From Candidatus Falkowbacteria bacterium (GTDB taxonomy: Bacteria > Patescibacteriota > Patescibacteriia > UBA11705 > JABHMO01): 64,000 bases of DNA. Positions within the stretch are counted from its first letter, which is position 1; every line of letters begins with the position of its first letter. Under the pieces are notes generated by a model. The model ran no database searches. It saw nothing but the letters and a program-made list of their open reading frames with translations, and was not told the DNA's origin. This document shows, in pieces, positions 35,049 through 40,172 of this stretch. A program made the translations under genes and the position numbers. The stretch is from the NCBI GenBank assembly GCA_018674305.1, contig JABHAL010000004.1, positions 256,446-320,445 of the forward strand, written 5' to 3'.

Positions 35049-35165
35049 ATGTAAACACAAAGAAGTCTTACGTCACACGTGAGGCTTCTTTTTATCCTTG
35101 AAAAGTTAGTTAAATTAGGGTAGAATATTAATGTTGTTACAAATTCTACAAATATTAGTAATCTT

Positions 35166-37991
35166 ATGAAGTACGATCACAAAAAAATTGAAAAAAGGTG
35201 GCAGAAATTTTGGCAAGAAAATGAAGTTTATAAAACTCAGGATGATAAAGAAAAACCAAAGTATTATATTTTGGATATGTTCCCTTACCCTTCAGGTGCA
35301 GGTTTGCATGTGGGACATCCAAAGGGTTACATTGCCACTGATATAATTGCTCGTATGAAAATGATGCAGGGCCATAATGTTCTTCATCCTATGGGGTGGG
35401 ACGCTTTTGGTTTGCCGGCAGAAAATTATGCAATTAAAAATAAAGTTCATCCACGCGATGCAGTAGCCAAAAATGTTAAAGTTTTCAAGGAACAGTTGAA
35501 TAAAATTGGATTTACTTATGACTGGAGTCGCGAGATTAATACCACAGATCAAGATTATTATAAGTGGACTCAGTGGACGTTTTTGAAAATGTTTGAAAAA
35601 GGTTTGGCTTATGAATCTGAAGAACCGATTATTTGGTGTCCAAGTTGTCAGACTGGCTTAGCAATGGAAGACTTGGAGGATGGCAGGTGTGAACGTTGTA
35701 ATAGTGAGATTGAACGGAAACCAATGCGCCAGTGGGTTTTGAAAATTACTGATTATGCTGAGCGTTTATTGAATGATTTAGATAAGTTAGATAAGTGGCC
35801 AGATTCTATTCGAGAGATGCAGAAGCATTGGATTGGTAGATCAGAGGGAGCTGAGGTAAAATTTGAAATCCGAAATTCGAAATTCGAAATTACCGTTTTT
35901 ACTACTCGTGCTGACACTTTGTTTGGGGCGACATTTATGGTGTTAGCGCCTGAACATCCGTTAGTTCAAGAAATCACAACTGAAGAAAATAAAAAACAAG
36001 TTGAAAAATATATTAAAAAAGCTTCAGCTAAATCAGATCTTGAACGAGCAGAATTACAAAAAGATAAATCTGGGGTTTTTAGTGGAGCGTATGCCATAAA
36101 TCCTGTTAATAATGAAGAAATACCAATTTGGATTGCTGATTATGTTTTGATGAACTATGGCACCGGTGCAATTATGGCTGTTCCAGCGCATGATCAACGT
36201 GATTTTGAGTTTGCAAAGAAATACGATATTCCGATCGTGCCAGTTGTAATGCCATTTATCAAGGCTCAGGATAATGATTTGCCAAAAAAGAACAAAAAAA
36301 CAGAAAAGAGAAATAATGTGATTGTAGTTGTTAAACATTGGGCAGAGGATAAATATTTTTGCTTGGATTGGAAGAATTTCGGTTGGACTTCTTTTGTTGT
36401 CGGTGGAATTGAGGATGGCGAAAGTTCCGAAGATGCAGCTTTGCGAGAAATGAGAGAAGAGTCGGGTTATCAAAATGTTAAGTCAATTAAAAAATTAGGT
36501 GGACCGATAGCTACAAATTTTTTTGCTAAACACAAGGATATTAATCGTGAAACGGTTATTGAAGGCTTTTATGTTGAATTAACTGATGGTGAATATGTTG
36601 AACCATTAGATAAGGATGTTGAGCATCATGTTGGACAGTGGGTTGATAAGGATAAAGTGTCTTCATTTATTAATTTGGAAAATCATTCCTGGTTTTTTGA
36701 TATATCAACGAATGGAGAATCAGTTTATTCTGGTAAAGGAATAAGTATTAATTCTGAGGAATTCAATGGACAAACTACATTAGAAGCTATGGAGGGAATT
36801 GTTAAAAAAGCTGGAGCAATCAAAAAAATAAATTATAAACTTCAAGACTGGGTTTTTTCTCGTCAGCGATATTGGGGTGAGCCAATTCCAATAATTCATT
36901 GTGAAAAGTGTGGCCCCGTAGCAGTTCCAGAAAAAGATTTACCAGTTAAACTACCGGAAGTTGAGAGTTACGAACCAACTGGAACAGGTGAGTCACCTTT
37001 GGCAGGTATTGATGAATGGGTGAATGTTGAATGTCCGAAGTGCGGTGGTCTAGGAAAAAGAGAAACTAATACCATGCCTCAGTGGGCAGGTTCCAATTGG
37101 TATTATCTTCGTTATATTGATCCAGCTAATGATAAAGCTTTAGTCGACAAAGAAAAAGAAAAATATTGGTCTCCAGTTGATTTTTATGTCGGCGGTGCAG
37201 AGCATGCTACTCGGCATTTAATTTATTCCCGGTTTTGGCATAAGTTTTTATTTGATATCGGAGCAGTTAGTTATGATGAACCATTTACTCGACTTCAGCA
37301 TGTAGGTTTAATCATGGCCGAAGATGGCCGAAAAATGAGTAAGCGCTGGGGGAATGTTATCAATCCAGATGATATTATAAAAGAGTACGGCGCTGATGCC
37401 CTGCGTGCTTACGAAATGTTCATGGGTCCATTTGATCAGGCTAGTGTTTGGGATACTAATGGGTTGCGAGGAGTCAAAAAGTTTTTGGATAAGGCACACG
37501 ATTTAGGAGGTAAAGGGGACAAAGGAGATAATAAAGAAATTGTTACTCTGTTGCATAAAACGATAAAAAAAGTCACCAAAGACATTGAAACTATGGATTT
37601 CAATACTGCTATTTCACAGATGATGATTTTTGTAAATAAAATTCAATCAACTGGCTGTAGTCAACAGACACGTAAAATGTTTTTACAAGTATTGAGTCCG
37701 TTCGCACCACATTTGTGTGAAGAATTATGGAGTCAGCTCGGGGAAAAGCAAAGTATTTTCTTGTCTGAGTGGCCAAAGCATGATGAGAAGTTAATTATTG
37801 AGGAGACAGTTGAAATTCCAGTCCAAATAAATGGCAAAGTACGAGTTAAGCTTCAGGTTGAACCTAATATTTTAGAAGAAAAATTGAAAGAATTGGTTTT
37901 TGCTGATGACCAAGTGCAACGATACGTTGAAGACAAAGAAGTAAAGAAATTCATTTATGTTAAGGGCAGGTTAGTAAGTTTAGTGGTTTAA
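35166..37991 (+). CDS. leuS: Leucyl-tRNA synthetase carrying an in-frame ~160-aa Nudix hydrolase domain insertion (approx nt 36250-36735)
   Basis: HVGHPKGY (HIGH), TTRADT editing motif, AHDQRDFEFA and KMSKR (KMSKS). A perfect Nudix box GGIEDGESSEDAALREMREESGY (GX5EX7REUXEEXGU) lies between the editing domain and the SEEFNG motif. Confidence 0.9.
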   Translation: MKYDHKKIEKRWQKFWQENEVYKTQDDKEKPKYYILDMFPYPSGAGLHVGHPKGYIATDIIARMKMMQGHNVLHPMGWDAFGLPAENYAIKNKVHPRDAVAKNVKVFKEQLNKIGFTYDWSREINTTDQDYYKWTQWTFLKMFEKGLAYESEEPIIWCPSCQTGLAMEDLEDGRCERCNSEIERKPMRQWVLKITDYAERLLNDLDKLDKWPDSIREMQKHWIGRSEGAEVKFEIRNSKFEITVFTTRADTLFGATFMVLAPEHPLVQEITTEENKKQVEKYIKKASAKSDLERAELQKDKSGVFSGAYAINPVNNEEIPIWIADYVLMNYGTGAIMAVPAHDQRDFEFAKKYDIPIVPVVMPFIKAQDNDLPKKNKKTEKRNNVIVVVKHWAEDKYFCLDWKNFGWTSFVVGGIEDGESSEDAALREMREESGYQNVKSIKKLGGPIATNFFAKHKDINRETVIEGFYVELTDGEYVEPLDKDVEHHVGQWVDKDKVSSFINLENHSWFFDISTNGESVYSGKGISINSEEFNGQTTLEAMEGIVKKAGAIKKINYKLQDWVFSRQRYWGEPIPIIHCEKCGPVAVPEKDLPVKLPEVESYEPTGTGESPLAGIDEWVNVECPKCGGLGKRETNTMPQWAGSNWYYLRYIDPANDKALVDKEKEKYWSPVDFYVGGAEHATRHLIYSRFWHKFLFDIGAVSYDEPFTRLQHVGLIMAEDGRKMSKRWGNVINPDDIIKEYGADALRAYEMFMGPFDQASVWDTNGLRGVKKFLDKAHDLGGKGDKGDNKEIVTLLHKTIKKVTKDIETMDFNTAISQMMIFVNKIQSTGCSQQTRKMFLQVLSPFAPHLCEELWSQLGEKQSIFLSEWPKHDEKLIIEETVEIPVQINGKVRVKLQVEPNILEEKLKELVFADDQVQRYVEDKEVKKFIYVKGRLVSLVV

Positions 37992-38654: not shown

Positions 38655-39407
38655 ATGGCACTAGCACAGGAATTATTAGCAATTGGTTTAAGTGATAAGG
38701 AGGCAGATGTTTATTTAGCTGCATTGCAGCTTGGTTATTCTTCTGTTCAAGAAATATCACAGAAAGCTAATATTAATCGCACAACAGCATACACCCACAT
38801 TAAAAATTTAATCAGTCGGGGACTTTTGAATGCAACCGAAAAAAATGGTAAAATTTTTTATGTCGCTGAACGACCAGAAAAATTGGAATATATTTATGAA
38901 CAGCAGGAAAATGAAATCAAGCGCAGGCGACAGATGTTAGATCAAATCATGCCCAAGTTAGAATCTCTTTATAATGTAGCGAAAGATAAGCCTTCAGTTC
39001 GCTATTATAACTATAACAGCCCAGAAGATTTAAAGGTTGTTAGACAAGAAATTGCTCAACGGCGATCCAATATAATGTATAATATTTTTAATTATGAATT
39101 GTATAAAGATTATGTCTCTCGTCGTCATGTACAAAACATTTTAGATTCAGTCCAGACTTTTAAAACTATATATATAGCGAATCATAAAATTGTTGATAGC
39201 CGTTTACGACCACTCTTAAAAAACGATAAATTTTTCATTAAATTTCTCACAGAAGCAAAGTTTGGATTTTTGTGTGAAGTTCTAATATCTGATGATAATG
39301 TTTATATTGCTGGCAAAGGAGATTGGTTAATCATTCGCGATGAACTTTTTTCGCAAACCCTTGGTTTGTTATTTGAAGCTTTGTGGGGCATTGCTGAGGA
39401 ATTTTAA
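38655..39407 (+). CDS. TrmB-family HTH transcriptional regulator (paralog 1)
   Basis: N-terminal winged-HTH GLSDKEADVYLAALQLGYSSVQEIS...NRTTAY; ~250 aa with C-terminal effector domain. Confidence 0.65.
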   Translation: MALAQELLAIGLSDKEADVYLAALQLGYSSVQEISQKANINRTTAYTHIKNLISRGLLNATEKNGKIFYVAERPEKLEYIYEQQENEIKRRRQMLDQIMPKLESLYNVAKDKPSVRYYNYNSPEDLKVVRQEIAQRRSNIMYNIFNYELYKDYVSRRHVQNILDSVQTFKTIYIANHKIVDSRLRPLLKNDKFFIKFLTEAKFGFLCEVLISDDNVYIAGKGDWLIIRDELFSQTLGLLFEALWGIAEEF

Positions 39408-39428: not shown

Positions 39429-40172
39429 ATGTTAATTAAAGAGTTACAAGAATTTGGTTTAAGTGATAAAGAATCTAGAGTTTATTTGGCTGCTCTTGAA
39501 CTAGGAACATCCACGATTCAGGAACTTTCACAGAAATCAAATGTTAATCGAGCAACTACCTATATTCAGGTGGAGACATTGTTAAAAAGAGGATTGCTCA
39601 GTACAGTAGATAAAAATAAAAAAAGTGTTTTTATTGCTGAGCGACCTGACCGATTGTTGTCGATCCTGGATGAACAAAAGCAAAAGATTGAGAATAAACA
39701 TGACAAGATAAAAAAACTTATACCTGATTTTGAAGCTTTATATAATGTGATTGGCGATCGGCCAAGAGTTAGATTTTTTGAAGGAAGTGTAGGTGTGGAT
39801 GCTTGGAGGCAGGATGTTTATAAGTTTGGCCCAAGTCAGCTAGATATGATTTTACCGTTAGTAGAGGATTTTGATGAAAAGAGTCAAGATACAAGTTTTC
39901 TAGAGAAAATTTTAACGCGTGTTCAAGCGGTGAGATTATTAGTCCCGGAAGAAAAAAGACAATTCATGAATAAGATTTTAACATCAGAAAATTTGCTTGT
40001 GAAATATCACAAGTTAGTTGATTTTAGAGCTGAAATGATAATATATAGTAATAAGGTTTATATTAGCAAGGCTCTAGGCGCTGCTAATATGGCTGTGTTG
40101 ATGGAGGACAAAATGTTTTATAAGAGTTTTTTGGCGATATATGATGTTTTGTGGGATGTTGCAGAAGAGTAA
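39429..40172 (+). CDS. TrmB-family HTH transcriptional regulator (paralog 2)
   Basis: GLSDKESRVYLAALELGTSTIQELS...NRATTY. Confidence 0.65.
   Translation: MLIKELQEFGLSDKESRVYLAALELGTSTIQELSQKSNVNRATTYIQVETLLKRGLLSTVDKNKKSVFIAERPDRLLSILDEQKQKIENKHDKIKKLIPDFEALYNVIGDRPRVRFFEGSVGVDAWRQDVYKFGPSQLDMILPLVEDFDEKSQDTSFLEKILTRVQAVRLLVPEEKRQFMNKILTSENLLVKYHKLVDFRAEMIIYSNKVYISKALGAANMAVLMEDKMFYKSFLAIYDVLWDVAEE

Follow-up and report, generated by a model that had tools for sequence, protein, structure and literature searches.

The leuS gene lies on the forward strand of the 64-kb stretch of DNA that was analysed (the window) and codes for a bacterial-type leucyl-tRNA synthetase (LeuRS) into which a Nudix domain is inserted. 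The features of the gene and its product are as follows, with amino acid (aa) positions counted along the protein.

35166..37991 (+): leuS, 941 aa, bacterial-type leucyl-tRNA synthetase, stop codon TAA (ORF list)
35307..35318 (+), aa 48-51: HVGH, the HIGH signature of the class I catalytic site (motif search)
35823..36248 (+), aa 220-361: N-terminal part of the CP1 editing domain (PF13603)
35901-35918 (+), aa 246-251: TTRADT, the threonine-rich editing motif (motif search)
36186-36212 (+), aa 341-349: AHDQRDFEF (motif search)
aa 352-361: KYDIPIVPVV, directly before the insert
36249..36752 (+), aa 362-529: Nudix cassette of 168 aa nested in CP1, comprising an N-terminal extension, the Nudix fold and C-terminal helices
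36402..36470 (+), aa 413-435: Nudix box GGIEDGESSEDAALREMREESGY, the metal-binding catalytic motif, with the pattern GX5EX7REUXEEXGU
36519..36548 (+), aa 452-461: FFAKHKDINR, the X-loop signature, presumed substrate-specificity loop, with the consensus [FY][FY]-A-x-H-K-x-x-N-R
aa 530-535: SEEFNG, directly after the insert
36753..36815 (+), aa 530 to ~550: C-terminal remainder of the CP1 editing domain (alignment to the insert-less relative P0014)
aa 557-571: conserved block YKLQDWVFSRQRYWG (motif search)
37332..37346 (+), aa 723-727: KMSKR, the KMSKS signature (motif search)
37533..37874 (+), aa 790-903: anticodon-binding domain (PF08264, 87.1 bits)

The complete protein matches the TIGR00396 (leuS_bact) profile at 1041.6 bits, above the cut-off of 548.4, and contains PF13603 at 227 bits. 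Its full-length structure model (pLDDT 90.7, pTM 0.82) gave the LeuRS of Thermus thermophilus, Escherichia coli and Neisseria gonorrhoeae as the best Foldseek matches (E ~1e-82). As the sequence-only reading had proposed, the synthetase is otherwise canonical, with the HIGH, TTRADT, AHDQRDFEF and KMSKR motifs all found. Among 87 LeuRS homologues, H48 and H51 of HVGH, K723 and K726 of KMSKR and the editing residues T246, T247, R248, D250, T251, H342, D343, R345 and D346 are invariant. Judged from its sequence, the leuS product is a working-type bacterial LeuRS in which both the aminoacylation and editing motifs are intact. It shares with the solved LeuRS-B structures (4aq7, 2bte and 7nu2) a Rossmann core with HIGH and KMSKS, a CP1 domain within this core, an anticodon-binding bundle and a C-terminal domain, with Foldseek TM scores of up to 0.85 (target-normalised) and intact editing-site residues, but differs from the solved LeuRS proteins (~760-880 residues) in its length of 941 residues. 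The Nudix-bearing LeuRS is probably the housekeeping enzyme, since this is the only leuS seen in the 64-kb window. Some related loci carry 'Woesearchaeota' labels, but an archaeal origin of the window is ruled out by the bacterial rpoB, rpoC, gyrA, ftsH and infB genes that it encodes. Rfam and tRNA scans of the window gave no matches.

The in-frame Nudix insert that had been read from the sequence between KYDIPIVPVV and SEEFNG was borne out by profile and structure alike. Pfam NUDIX (PF00293) matches at 41.9 bits with the whole protein and 46.2 bits with the insert alone, well above the gathering score of 21.1, and the predicted structure of the insert is a Nudix fold (pLDDT 96). The box at aa 413-435, described beforehand as a textbook one, is perfect, occurs once across the six frames of the window and lies on the predicted Nudix helix (421-433), while the insert aligns to no known LeuRS insertion. 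The coordinates first proposed, 36250-36735, were essentially correct and fell slightly short at the 3' end, with the insert spanning 36249-36752. The placement after the end of the editing domain, by contrast, did not hold. PF13603 is interrupted by the insert at approximately profile position 151 of 185 (aa 220-372 match profile positions 1-151), while P0014 has a contiguous PF13603 domain at residues 222-404 (profile positions 1-185), with a 14-residue loop at the cassette site. As PF13603 is split and aa ~523-550 of the window protein align to the end of the P0014 editing domain (P0014 residues ~385-404), the insert lies within, rather than after, this domain, and the Nudix module is nested in a surface loop of CP1. 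The 'IN|S' at the 3' junction belongs to LeuRS, as it is also found in the insert-less P0014. Neither direct nor inverted repeats, a sign of mobile elements, could be made out at the ends of the cassette beyond short matches at chance level. An intein or other self-splicing insert is ruled out, given that the fold is Nudix, not HINT, and that the insert starts with Met-Pro-Phe.

Mean identity to the window protein is ~37% for the insert and ~65% for the core. Across 75 homologous inserts the box residues are nonetheless near-invariant, with G413 retained in 74, G414 in 73, E419 in 61, R427 in 63, E428 in 74, E431 in 69, E432 in 74 and G434 in 71. Among vertically inherited pairs with unsaturated dS, the dN/dS of the insert (0.06-0.15) is comparable to that of the core (0.08-0.10). 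The insert is apparently an active and complete Nudix pyrophosphohydrolase domain, with its catalytic residues intact and under purifying selection. It could alternatively represent a non-catalytic Nudix fold serving as a nucleotide sensor, regulator or spacer, similar to the regulators NrtR and AraR. These two proteins and NadQ are among its structural neighbours, and degenerate Nudix boxes occur in some copies of the same subfamily located in prolyl-tRNA synthetases (ProRS; see below). Given the retention of the box Glu, Arg and Gly in nearly all of the 75 LeuRS inserts despite their low overall identity, and the perfect box of the window copy, a non-catalytic role seems highly improbable.

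The insert resembles the known Nudix (MutT-like, PF00293) enzymes in its alpha/beta/alpha fold of ~150 aa with GX5EX7REUXEEXGU on the catalytic helix. The structures compared were those of the Enterococcus faecalis MutT/Nudix protein 2azw and the Ap4A/ApnA hydrolases of Aquifex aeolicus (3i7u), T. thermophilus (Ndx1, 1vc8) and Mycobacterium tuberculosis (Rv2985, 9cxx). Unlike the known Nudix enzymes, it has a conserved N-terminal extension and an X-loop of the form [FY][FY]AxHKxxNR in place of the Tyr, Pro or SQPWPFPQS markers, and it is either part of an aminoacyl-tRNA synthetase (aaRS) or genetically linked to one. A class Ia synthetase with an extra enzymatic domain is also represented by NF040702 ('isoleucine--tRNA ligase, N-acetyltransferase domain-containing'); however, the domain in LeuRS is Nudix rather than GNAT and the window protein, at 78 bits against a cut-off of 1999, is not a member of this family. 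Extra aaRS domains are a major theme in eukaryotes, and we know of no catalytic domain reported to be nested within an aaRS editing domain in bacteria. A large 2026 survey states that PF13603 never hosts insertions (PMC13114784), while in the window LeuRS this domain does host an insert, giving a doubly nested architecture.

The LeuRS-Nudix layout is common to hundreds of related genomes. PF00293 is found in 87 of the 120 nearest LeuRS clusters, all of them from Patescibacteria/CPR, so that the Nudix-bearing form is the majority among the nearest LeuRS relatives. An exhaustive search recovered 390 clusters related to the insert at E <= 0.001, and LeuRS proteins or LeuRS fragments account for 102 of the 150 closest insert relatives. 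When genomes were scanned with a seven-sequence insert alignment, sampling one subclade, all 42 matches fell inside leuS frames. A word-indexed homology search with the insert alone returned no match, which reflects a limit of the index and is uninformative on rarity, since the full-length and exhaustive searches gave hundreds of relatives. The source names of the Nudix-bearing proteins read only 'leucine--tRNA ligase', 'leucyl-tRNA synthetase' or 'class I tRNA ligase family protein'. The sequence-only reading had been aware of no description of the architecture, which agrees with its absence from the literature searched, but the sequences themselves are abundant in public data under these generic names.

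The history of the module is distinct from that of its host. The identities of insert and core are uncorrelated (rho 0.02), and near-identical LeuRS proteins may carry inserts that are only 39% identical. Between P0010 and P0017, identity is 30-48% within aa 346-526 and 97-100% in the rest of the protein, and at least 56 allele changes are required on a tree of 103 tips. A single LeuRS may contain up to three Nudix copies. The CP1 insertion site is one of two hot spots, and in sibling LeuRS proteins the same hot spots host Ham1 (ITPase), ASCH, serine-hydrolase and nucleotidyltransferase domains. Lineages acquire the Nudix module, lose it and exchange it with one another like a cassette, and the breakpoints fall in the conserved LeuRS blocks on its two sides. 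The discordance is not due to fast, relaxed evolution, as third-codon identity declines from ~0.65 to ~0.4 within the insert in true orthologs and vertically inherited inserts have a low dN/dS. Assembly chimeras are also unlikely, as both flanks of each pair share their lineage and gene order is shared between the window and locus L001 for over 10 kb.

Such turnover could be explained by conflict or immunity, whereby the inserted enzymes would protect LeuRS or tRNA by neutralising the toxins or antibiotics directed at them, and cassette replacement would represent an arms race. Aminoacyl-adenylate mimics would be among the targets, as would toxic nucleotides, (p)ppApp for instance, and tRNA ends that have been marked with ADP-ribosyl or pyrophosphoryl groups. 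The lack of correlation between core and insert identity, the divergence confined to the insert in P0010 and P0017, the number of allele changes, the multiple Nudix copies and the other enzyme types at the same sites would all fit this explanation. Natural LeuRS-directed toxins also exist, such as agrocin 84 (TM84), seen with the E. coli LeuRS (PDB 3zgz), and a self-immunity LeuRS is the subject of a published paper (PMC5059758). Yet searches of defence-system and phage libraries gave nothing specific, with no significant match among the PADLOC-DB defence models (only the candidate family PDC-S07, 17.8 bits, E 4.8e-4), and the flanks of leuS in the window and L001 contain no toxin, antitoxin or defence genes. 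The vertically inherited inserts are, moreover, under ordinary purifying rather than diversifying selection, and the acidic nature of the domain disfavours direct tRNA binding. A role in conflict is accordingly considered distinctly unlikely.

Members of the Nudix subfamily also occur outside LeuRS. The same subfamily is inserted in a class II ProRS, between the anticodon-binding and C-terminal domains. Free-standing members are located 2-3 bp upstream of leuS, in one case beside an insert-less leuS. Others precede thrS by 49 bp or follow argS at a distance of 13 bp, the latter next to an IleRS-like gene. The loci abutting leuS, thrS or argS make up four of the six informative free-standing loci. 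A free-standing gene next to an insert-less leuS, set against the fusion, constitutes a fused/split 'Rosetta stone'. A distinct Nudix subfamily is tied to aaRSs in CPR-type genomes, and a general link between the two is supported because the module is both fused to two unrelated synthetases and adjoins aaRS genes. In a broader model, here put forward as speculative and rather unlikely, the CP1 domain would act in CPR LeuRS as a platform on which whole genes for small enzymes dock, at two hot spots, and are swapped between lineages through flank-anchored recombination, amounting to a cassette system within an essential gene of translation. The cargo would serve aaRSs generally, as suggested by the occurrence of the same Nudix in ProRS and beside leuS, thrS and argS, and would destroy adenylate- or toxin-derived nucleotides, with its turnover driven by conflict.

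Two of the free-standing members have other neighbours. One lies 5 bp downstream of fpg/mutM, while another shares its contig with genes for dUTPase, thymidylate kinase and additional Nudix proteins. These neighbours, along with Ham1 (an ITP/XTP pyrophosphatase) and the other small hydrolases at the same hot spots, suggest a role in nucleotide-pool sanitation. The module would then be a MutT/NudI/MTH1-like (d)NTP pyrophosphatase acting on oxidised or aberrant nucleotides, parked in a permissive CP1 loop and uncoupled from leucylation. CP1 loops would tolerate such inserts, and fusion to an essential and constitutive gene would guarantee expression in a streamlined genome. MutT, NudI, NudB and NUDT15 are structural neighbours of the insert, MTH1 is among the PDB sequence matches, over the box region only, and an acidic domain suits a small-molecule substrate. 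However, sanitation does not account for a subfamily that hardly occurs away from aaRS genes (with 102 of the 150 relatives in LeuRS, one clade in ProRS and four of six free loci abutting leuS, thrS or argS) and leaves the fused/split pair with an insert-less leuS unexplained, while the conserved HKxxNR X-loop seems unlike MutT-type specificity features. This role is viewed as possible but somewhat doubtful.

The nature of the substrate was further considered on the basis of the X-loop and of matches to characterised enzymes. The X-loop is a specificity region in Nudix enzymes, and in ApnA hydrolases it contains a conserved Tyr ~17 residues past the box (PMC5389931; the latter from Dunn et al. 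1999, as summarised there). In the family studied here an aromatic pair occupies positions +17 and +18 after the box, with Phe-Phe in the window protein and F (107) or Y (48) at +17 and F (80) or Y (69) at +18 in the family. The position of the ApnA marker Tyr is Phe in the window protein, and Tyr in only ~30-40% of the family. The X-loop K is found at +22 in 133 of 165 family members and the N and R are near-invariant, with K96, N99 and R100 conserved in the insert. The module has a net charge of -7 (family mean -6.7), while the X-loop is basic, with H, K and R. The curated ApnA and RppH/NudH models were not matched above their cut-offs, the best NCBIfam matches being weak ones to RppH/NudH-type models (29 bits against cut-offs of 116-118; NF001936 RppH, 29.1 bits, cut-off 118). 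The family has no conserved Pro at +14 to +28, the marker of ADP-ribose diphosphatases, and the scores with the NudE, NudF and YffH models (16-24 bits) are far under the respective cut-offs. The NudC motif SQPWPFPQS is absent from the insert (NF001299, 16.8 bits, cut-off 158), and the MutT equivalogs TIGR00586 (14.4 bits against 97.9) and NF008044 (16.9 bits against 148) likewise fall short. A PDB sequence search gave matches at the level of the Nudix box only (E >= 7e-4) and so pointed to no particular Nudix subfamily. The identity of the insert to any solved Nudix protein is at most 23%, and the top structural match, 2azw, is itself uncharacterised.

CP1 is mobile and handles the 3' end of the tRNA. 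The location of the domain on CP1 raises the option of a tRNA- or RNA-directed Nudix enzyme, which would strip tRNA-Leu, during charging, of a cap or of a group attached through pyrophosphate (5'-ppp, NAD or Np4A caps, or adducts at the 3' end). RppH, NudC, NUDT12 and decapping effectors are structural neighbours and the RppH models rank top in NCBIfam, but these matches are weak and the net charge of the module is unlike that of RNA-binding Nudix enzymes. The ProRS module, furthermore, is differently placed relative to the tRNA, and free-standing forms exist, making activity on tRNA an improbable explanation.

The leading explanation, with a probability of roughly one in three, is that the Nudix domain clears adenylate-derived dinucleoside polyphosphates. 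The sequence-only reading had likewise suggested that the domain may clear Ap4A, or else act on leucyl-adenylate. The substrate would be small and rich in phosphate, a nucleotide formed by all synthetases from their aminoacyl-adenylates, most likely the dinucleoside polyphosphates Ap4A, Ap3A or Ap4N, which would be hydrolysed at the site of production to ATP or ADP and AMP. Adenine nucleotides would be recycled and a build-up of alarmones or RNA-cap precursors prevented in organisms with a minimal nucleotide metabolism, while tethering to, or co-transcription with, the synthetase would match hydrolase dosage to synthetase dosage. A small phosphate-rich substrate is favoured by the acidic module with its basic X-loop, the weak RppH/NudH matches and the aromatic pair at +17/+18. 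Where Ap4A metabolism involves separate enzymes, an aaRS such as LysRS is the producer and a Nudix enzyme (NUDT2 or RppH/NudH), ApaH or YqeK the hydrolase. LeuRS-Nudix would present the same pairing of producer and hydrolase, its own Ap4A activity being putative, but the known Ap4A hydrolases are separate and unlinked proteins, while the CPR Nudix is covalently inserted or operon-linked. Clearance of Ap4A in particular is opposed by the lack of a close characterised relative and the replacement of the marker Tyr by Phe in the window protein. LeuRS is also a comparatively weak producer of Ap4A, and ArgRS is not known to make any. The Ham1, ASCH and other siblings and the fpg/mutM, dUTPase and thymidylate kinase neighbours are more in keeping with a general cleaning of the nucleotide pool than with Ap4A specifically, and a housekeeping role does not account for the fast replacement of the cassette.

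Most of the nearest relatives, members of a vast bacterial radiation that is still poorly understood, have the Nudix-LeuRS layout. Cassette exchange within an essential gene is uncommon as a way for proteins to evolve, and it bears on LeuRS phylogenies as well as on annotation, since the source names of these proteins say only 'leucine--tRNA ligase' or similar. The fused/split pattern over four synthetases makes the functional link testable. If the Nudix domain clears Ap4A-type by-products, the fusion would be the first case in which an alarmone producer is covalently joined to its hydrolase and would offer a direct handle on the nucleotide economy of ultra-small symbionts.

The leuS gene of the window encodes a bacterial-type leucyl-tRNA synthetase (LeuRS) carrying a Nudix domain in the same reading frame. 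The relevant features are:

35166..37991, + strand: leuS, single ORF, bacterial-type leucyl-tRNA synthetase of 941 aa
aa 48-51 of LeuRS: HVGH
aa 246-251 of LeuRS: TTRADT
aa 341-349 of LeuRS: AHDQRDFEF
36249-36752, + strand: Nudix insert, 168 residues between KYDIPIVPVV (aa 352-361) and SEEFNG (aa 530-535)
aa 413-435 of LeuRS, within the insert: Nudix box GGIEDGESSEDAALREMREESGY
aa 723-727 of LeuRS: KMSKR

All of the LeuS motifs quoted in the sequence-only reading of this stretch (HIGH, TTRADT, AHDQRDFEF and KMSKR) are found in the 941-aa protein, which scores 1041.6 bits against TIGR00396 (cut-off 548.4) and contains the Pfam domains tRNA-synt_1, PF13603 (the CP1 editing domain) and Anticodon_1. 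Its AlphaFold model is confident (pLDDT 90.7, pTM 0.82) and matches solved LeuRS structures with E-values of ~1e-82, and the LeuRS catalytic and editing residues show no variation across 87 homologues. The in-frame Nudix domain proposed in the same reading was likewise recovered, both through the box at aa 413-435 and through the HMM search it had suggested, in which the insert alone scored 46.2 bits with Pfam NUDIX (gathering score 21.1). This box is the only one in the six frames of the 64-kb window. All sequence and fold criteria applied place the protein in both bacterial LeuRS and the Nudix superfamily. Membership of the curated Nudix subfamilies RppH, MutT, NudC, NudE and NudF was rejected, with all scores far below the cut-offs.

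The earlier placement of the insert after the end of the editing domain was wrong, as it lies inside PF13603 and breaks this domain at profile position ~151 of 185. In P0014, a LeuRS lacking the insert, PF13603 is contiguous (residues 222-404, profile 1-185). A 14-residue loop stands at the cassette position, and the remaining editing-domain segment aligns with aa ~523-550 of the window protein. The architecture is thereby doubly nested, with the Nudix domain inside CP1 and CP1 inside the Rossmann core.

Conservation of the box was counted in 75 LeuRS homologues that share this insertion site. G413 is retained in 74, G414 in 73, E419 in 61, R427 in 63, E428 in 74, E431 in 69, E432 in 74 and G434 in 71 of these inserts, which average ~37% identity to that of the window, as opposed to ~65% for the LeuRS core outside it. 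For genomic locus pairs with unsaturated synonymous sites, the dN/dS of the insert is 0.06-0.15, comparable to the 0.08-0.10 of the core. The simplest reading is that of a working LeuRS bearing a Nudix hydrolase predicted to be functional as well. A non-catalytic role for the Nudix domain fits the data less well and is very improbable.

The window can be assigned to a bacterium on the basis of its single-gene rpoB and rpoC, gyrA, ftsH and bacterial infB, and the LeuRS sequences closest to its own carry the labels Patescibacteria, Parcubacteria or Moranbacteria. PF00293 is present in 87 of the 120 nearest LeuRS clusters. An exhaustive HMMER search with the insert against 1.84 billion representatives yielded 390 relatives at E <= 0.001, of which 184 reached E <= 1e-10, with recognisable LeuRS flanks in 102 of the best 150. 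A pattern-limited scan that took a single genome for each species yielded 42 loci, all 42 matches falling within leuS reading frames. The source names shown for these proteins in public data are only leucine--tRNA ligase or similar. Full-text literature searches for a Nudix fusion to an aminoacyl-tRNA synthetase (aaRS) found no description; the supposition that the architecture is undescribed thus holds for the papers searched, although it is abundant in public sequence data. The 2017 Nudix clan survey (PMC5389931) is silent on tRNA synthetases, as is the AARS Online paper on Nudix. A 2026 survey of domain insertions (PMC13114784) treats the LeuRS editing domain as insertion-exclusive, with zero instances of host function, a statement that the window LeuRS contradicts. 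The combination of Nudix with CP1 is widespread in sequence data and undescribed in the searched literature.

Many bacterial-type leuS-Nudix loci occur in metagenome-assembled genomes (MAGs) labelled Woesearchaeota, Pacearchaeota, Iainarchaeum or 'archaeon' (L010, L012, L015, L016, L018, L022, L023, L025, L029, L030, L033, L037 and L039), and a clade of prolyl-tRNA synthetases (ProRS) with a Nudix domain is placed among ProRS labelled Nanoarchaeota or Woesearchaeota. Such labels reflect either mislabelled or mis-binned MAGs, or CPR-DPANN gene transfer. Four insert relatives (P0136, P0151, P0189 and P0210) have Trp at otherwise invariant Gly positions of the box (e.g. VWWVEE...ETWY), suggesting translation with UGA as Trp of genomes that use UGA as Gly (code 25, Gracilibacteria/Absconditabacteria), in which case the Nudix module would extend to these taxa.

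Insertions in CPR LeuRS are concentrated at two hot spots, site A close to where PF13603 begins and site B, occupied by the window insert, at profile ~146-151. Site A carries Ham1, ASCH, or one or two Nudix domains, and site B carries Nudix, a serine hydrolase, both in tandem, or a nucleotidyltransferase. One LeuRS can hold as many as three Nudix copies; the main form has a single Nudix at site B (104 proteins of the set examined).

The inserts behave like an exchangeable cassette. Pairwise core and insert identities are uncorrelated among 75 insert-bearing LeuRS (Spearman 0.02), and the syntenic ortholog at locus L001 is 88% identical to the window protein in the core and 29% in the insert. 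Between these two, amino acid identity falls from ~0.9 to 0.15-0.5 between aa ~350 and ~548, and third-codon identity from ~0.65 to ~0.4 across the insert, indicating that the insert DNA diverged much earlier than the DNA flanking it. The LeuRS proteins P0010 and P0017 are 97-100% identical outside aa 346-526 and 30-48% inside, P0052 and P0108 show the opposite pattern, and LeuRS without an insert occur among close relatives at 76-77% core identity. The minimum number of changes on a core-only tree with 103 sequences is 24 for the states none, Nudix and other (shuffled expectation 36) and 56 for the insert allele (shuffled expectation 72). The cassette breakpoints fall within two conserved blocks, AHDxRDxEFA and YKLxDWxFSRQRYWG, both candidate homology arms for exchange; a search for terminal repeats at the cassette ends found none marking it. 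A role of the inserted module in conflict or immunity would account for this turnover, but it is supported by neither defence libraries nor neighbouring genes and is on that ground considered improbable.

Two contigs of one Moraniibacteriota MAG (JALSQF01 contigs 3 and 2; L036 and L043) each carry a leuS-Nudix fragment truncated by the contig end, which could represent strain heterogeneity or a duplicated leuS. In one MAG a single in-frame TAA interrupts leuS (L028:3860-4180, AHDERDWEFARKYNL*FVQVVAPLF) exactly at the junction preceding the Nudix cassette. The stop may stem from a sequencing error, mark a pseudogene or reflect a LeuRS that is truly split.

The gene order infB, thioredoxin reductase, GDH, RNase HII, CHAP, leuS and two TrmB genes is common to the window and L001, with the position of the TrmB pair retained:

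38655-39407 and 39429-40172, + strand: tandem paralogous TrmB-family regulators of 250 and 247 aa, just 3' of leuS

Immediately upstream of leuS, L001 has an extra 124-aa PDDEXK_3 (nuclease-fold) gene (L001:9583-9957), absent from the window (compared interval 35049-35165). No tRNA genes or Rfam families at gathering threshold were found in window positions 1-64000, despite the presence of rpoB, rpoC, gyrA, ftsH, infB and leuS.

The same Nudix subfamily occurs in a class II synthetase, the ProRS P0224, between the anticodon-binding and C-terminal domains. This ProRS-Nudix form is a small clade (5/120 nearest ProRS) with boxes ranging from canonical to partly degenerate. Free-standing members of the subfamily (160-190 aa) keep the N-terminal extension of the LeuRS insert, so that the cassette corresponds to a whole gene. 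One (P0149) stops 2 bp short of a leuS with an insert of its own, and another (P0207) 3 bp short of an insert-less leuS, forming a fused/split pair. Of the others, P0212 lies 49 bp upstream of thrS, P0214 follows argS at a distance of 13 bp and precedes an IleRS-like gene, P0191 comes after fpg/mutM and P0233 is beside a MarR-family gene. Four of the six informative loci thus adjoin aaRS genes. As a rough estimate, ~5% of genes in a ~800-gene genome have an aaRS neighbour, and if this holds the chance of such an outcome is of the order of 1e-4. These comparisons demonstrate a Nudix module under selection, predicted to be catalytically competent and coupled physically or genetically to synthetases of both classes. 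A further case of a hydrolase inserted in an aaRS is a 1,184-aa class Ia synthetase with an inserted His_Phos_1 (histidine phosphatase) domain (L050:6094-9648, logan:SRR36607724_34459), IleRS-like on the basis of tRNA-synt_1, Anticodon_1 and DUF5915. Its neighbours include three or four separate Nudix genes, argS, dUTPase, thymidylate kinase and a Zeta-toxin-like kinase.

The Nudix substrate would be a compound that synthetase reactions have in common. With a net charge of -7 (family mean -6.7) the module is acidic, so a small molecule is a likelier substrate than an RNA backbone. A role directed at tRNA ends fits the data less well and is quite improbable, though less so than a non-catalytic one. 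A conserved, basic signature, [FY][FY]-A-x-H-K-x-x-N-R, lies +17 to +26 past the box, in the region defined as the X-loop (PMC5389931), the presumed substrate-specificity loop, and its basic residues would suit a phosphate-rich X group. The better structural neighbours include Ap4A and ApnA hydrolases, and the NCBIfam matches are weak ones to RppH/NudH models. On these grounds, clearance of adenylate-derived dinucleoside polyphosphates, as proposed in the sequence-only reading, is tentatively ranked first (probability roughly 0.35). Against this ranking, the marker Tyr of ApnA hydrolases is Phe in the window protein and in the family is Tyr in only some members, and LeuRS makes rather little Ap4A while ArgRS is not known to make any. 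The Nudix family is moreover accompanied by Ham1, MutM, dUTPase and thymidylate kinase, company that fits general sanitation of the nucleotide pool, a possible but somewhat doubtful role that leaves the aaRS association unexplained.

The interest of the system lies in the aaRS-wide association of Nudix, the repertoire of alternative inserted enzymes, the dynamics of a cassette within an essential gene, and the testable idea that a producer and its hydrolase may be covalently coupled.
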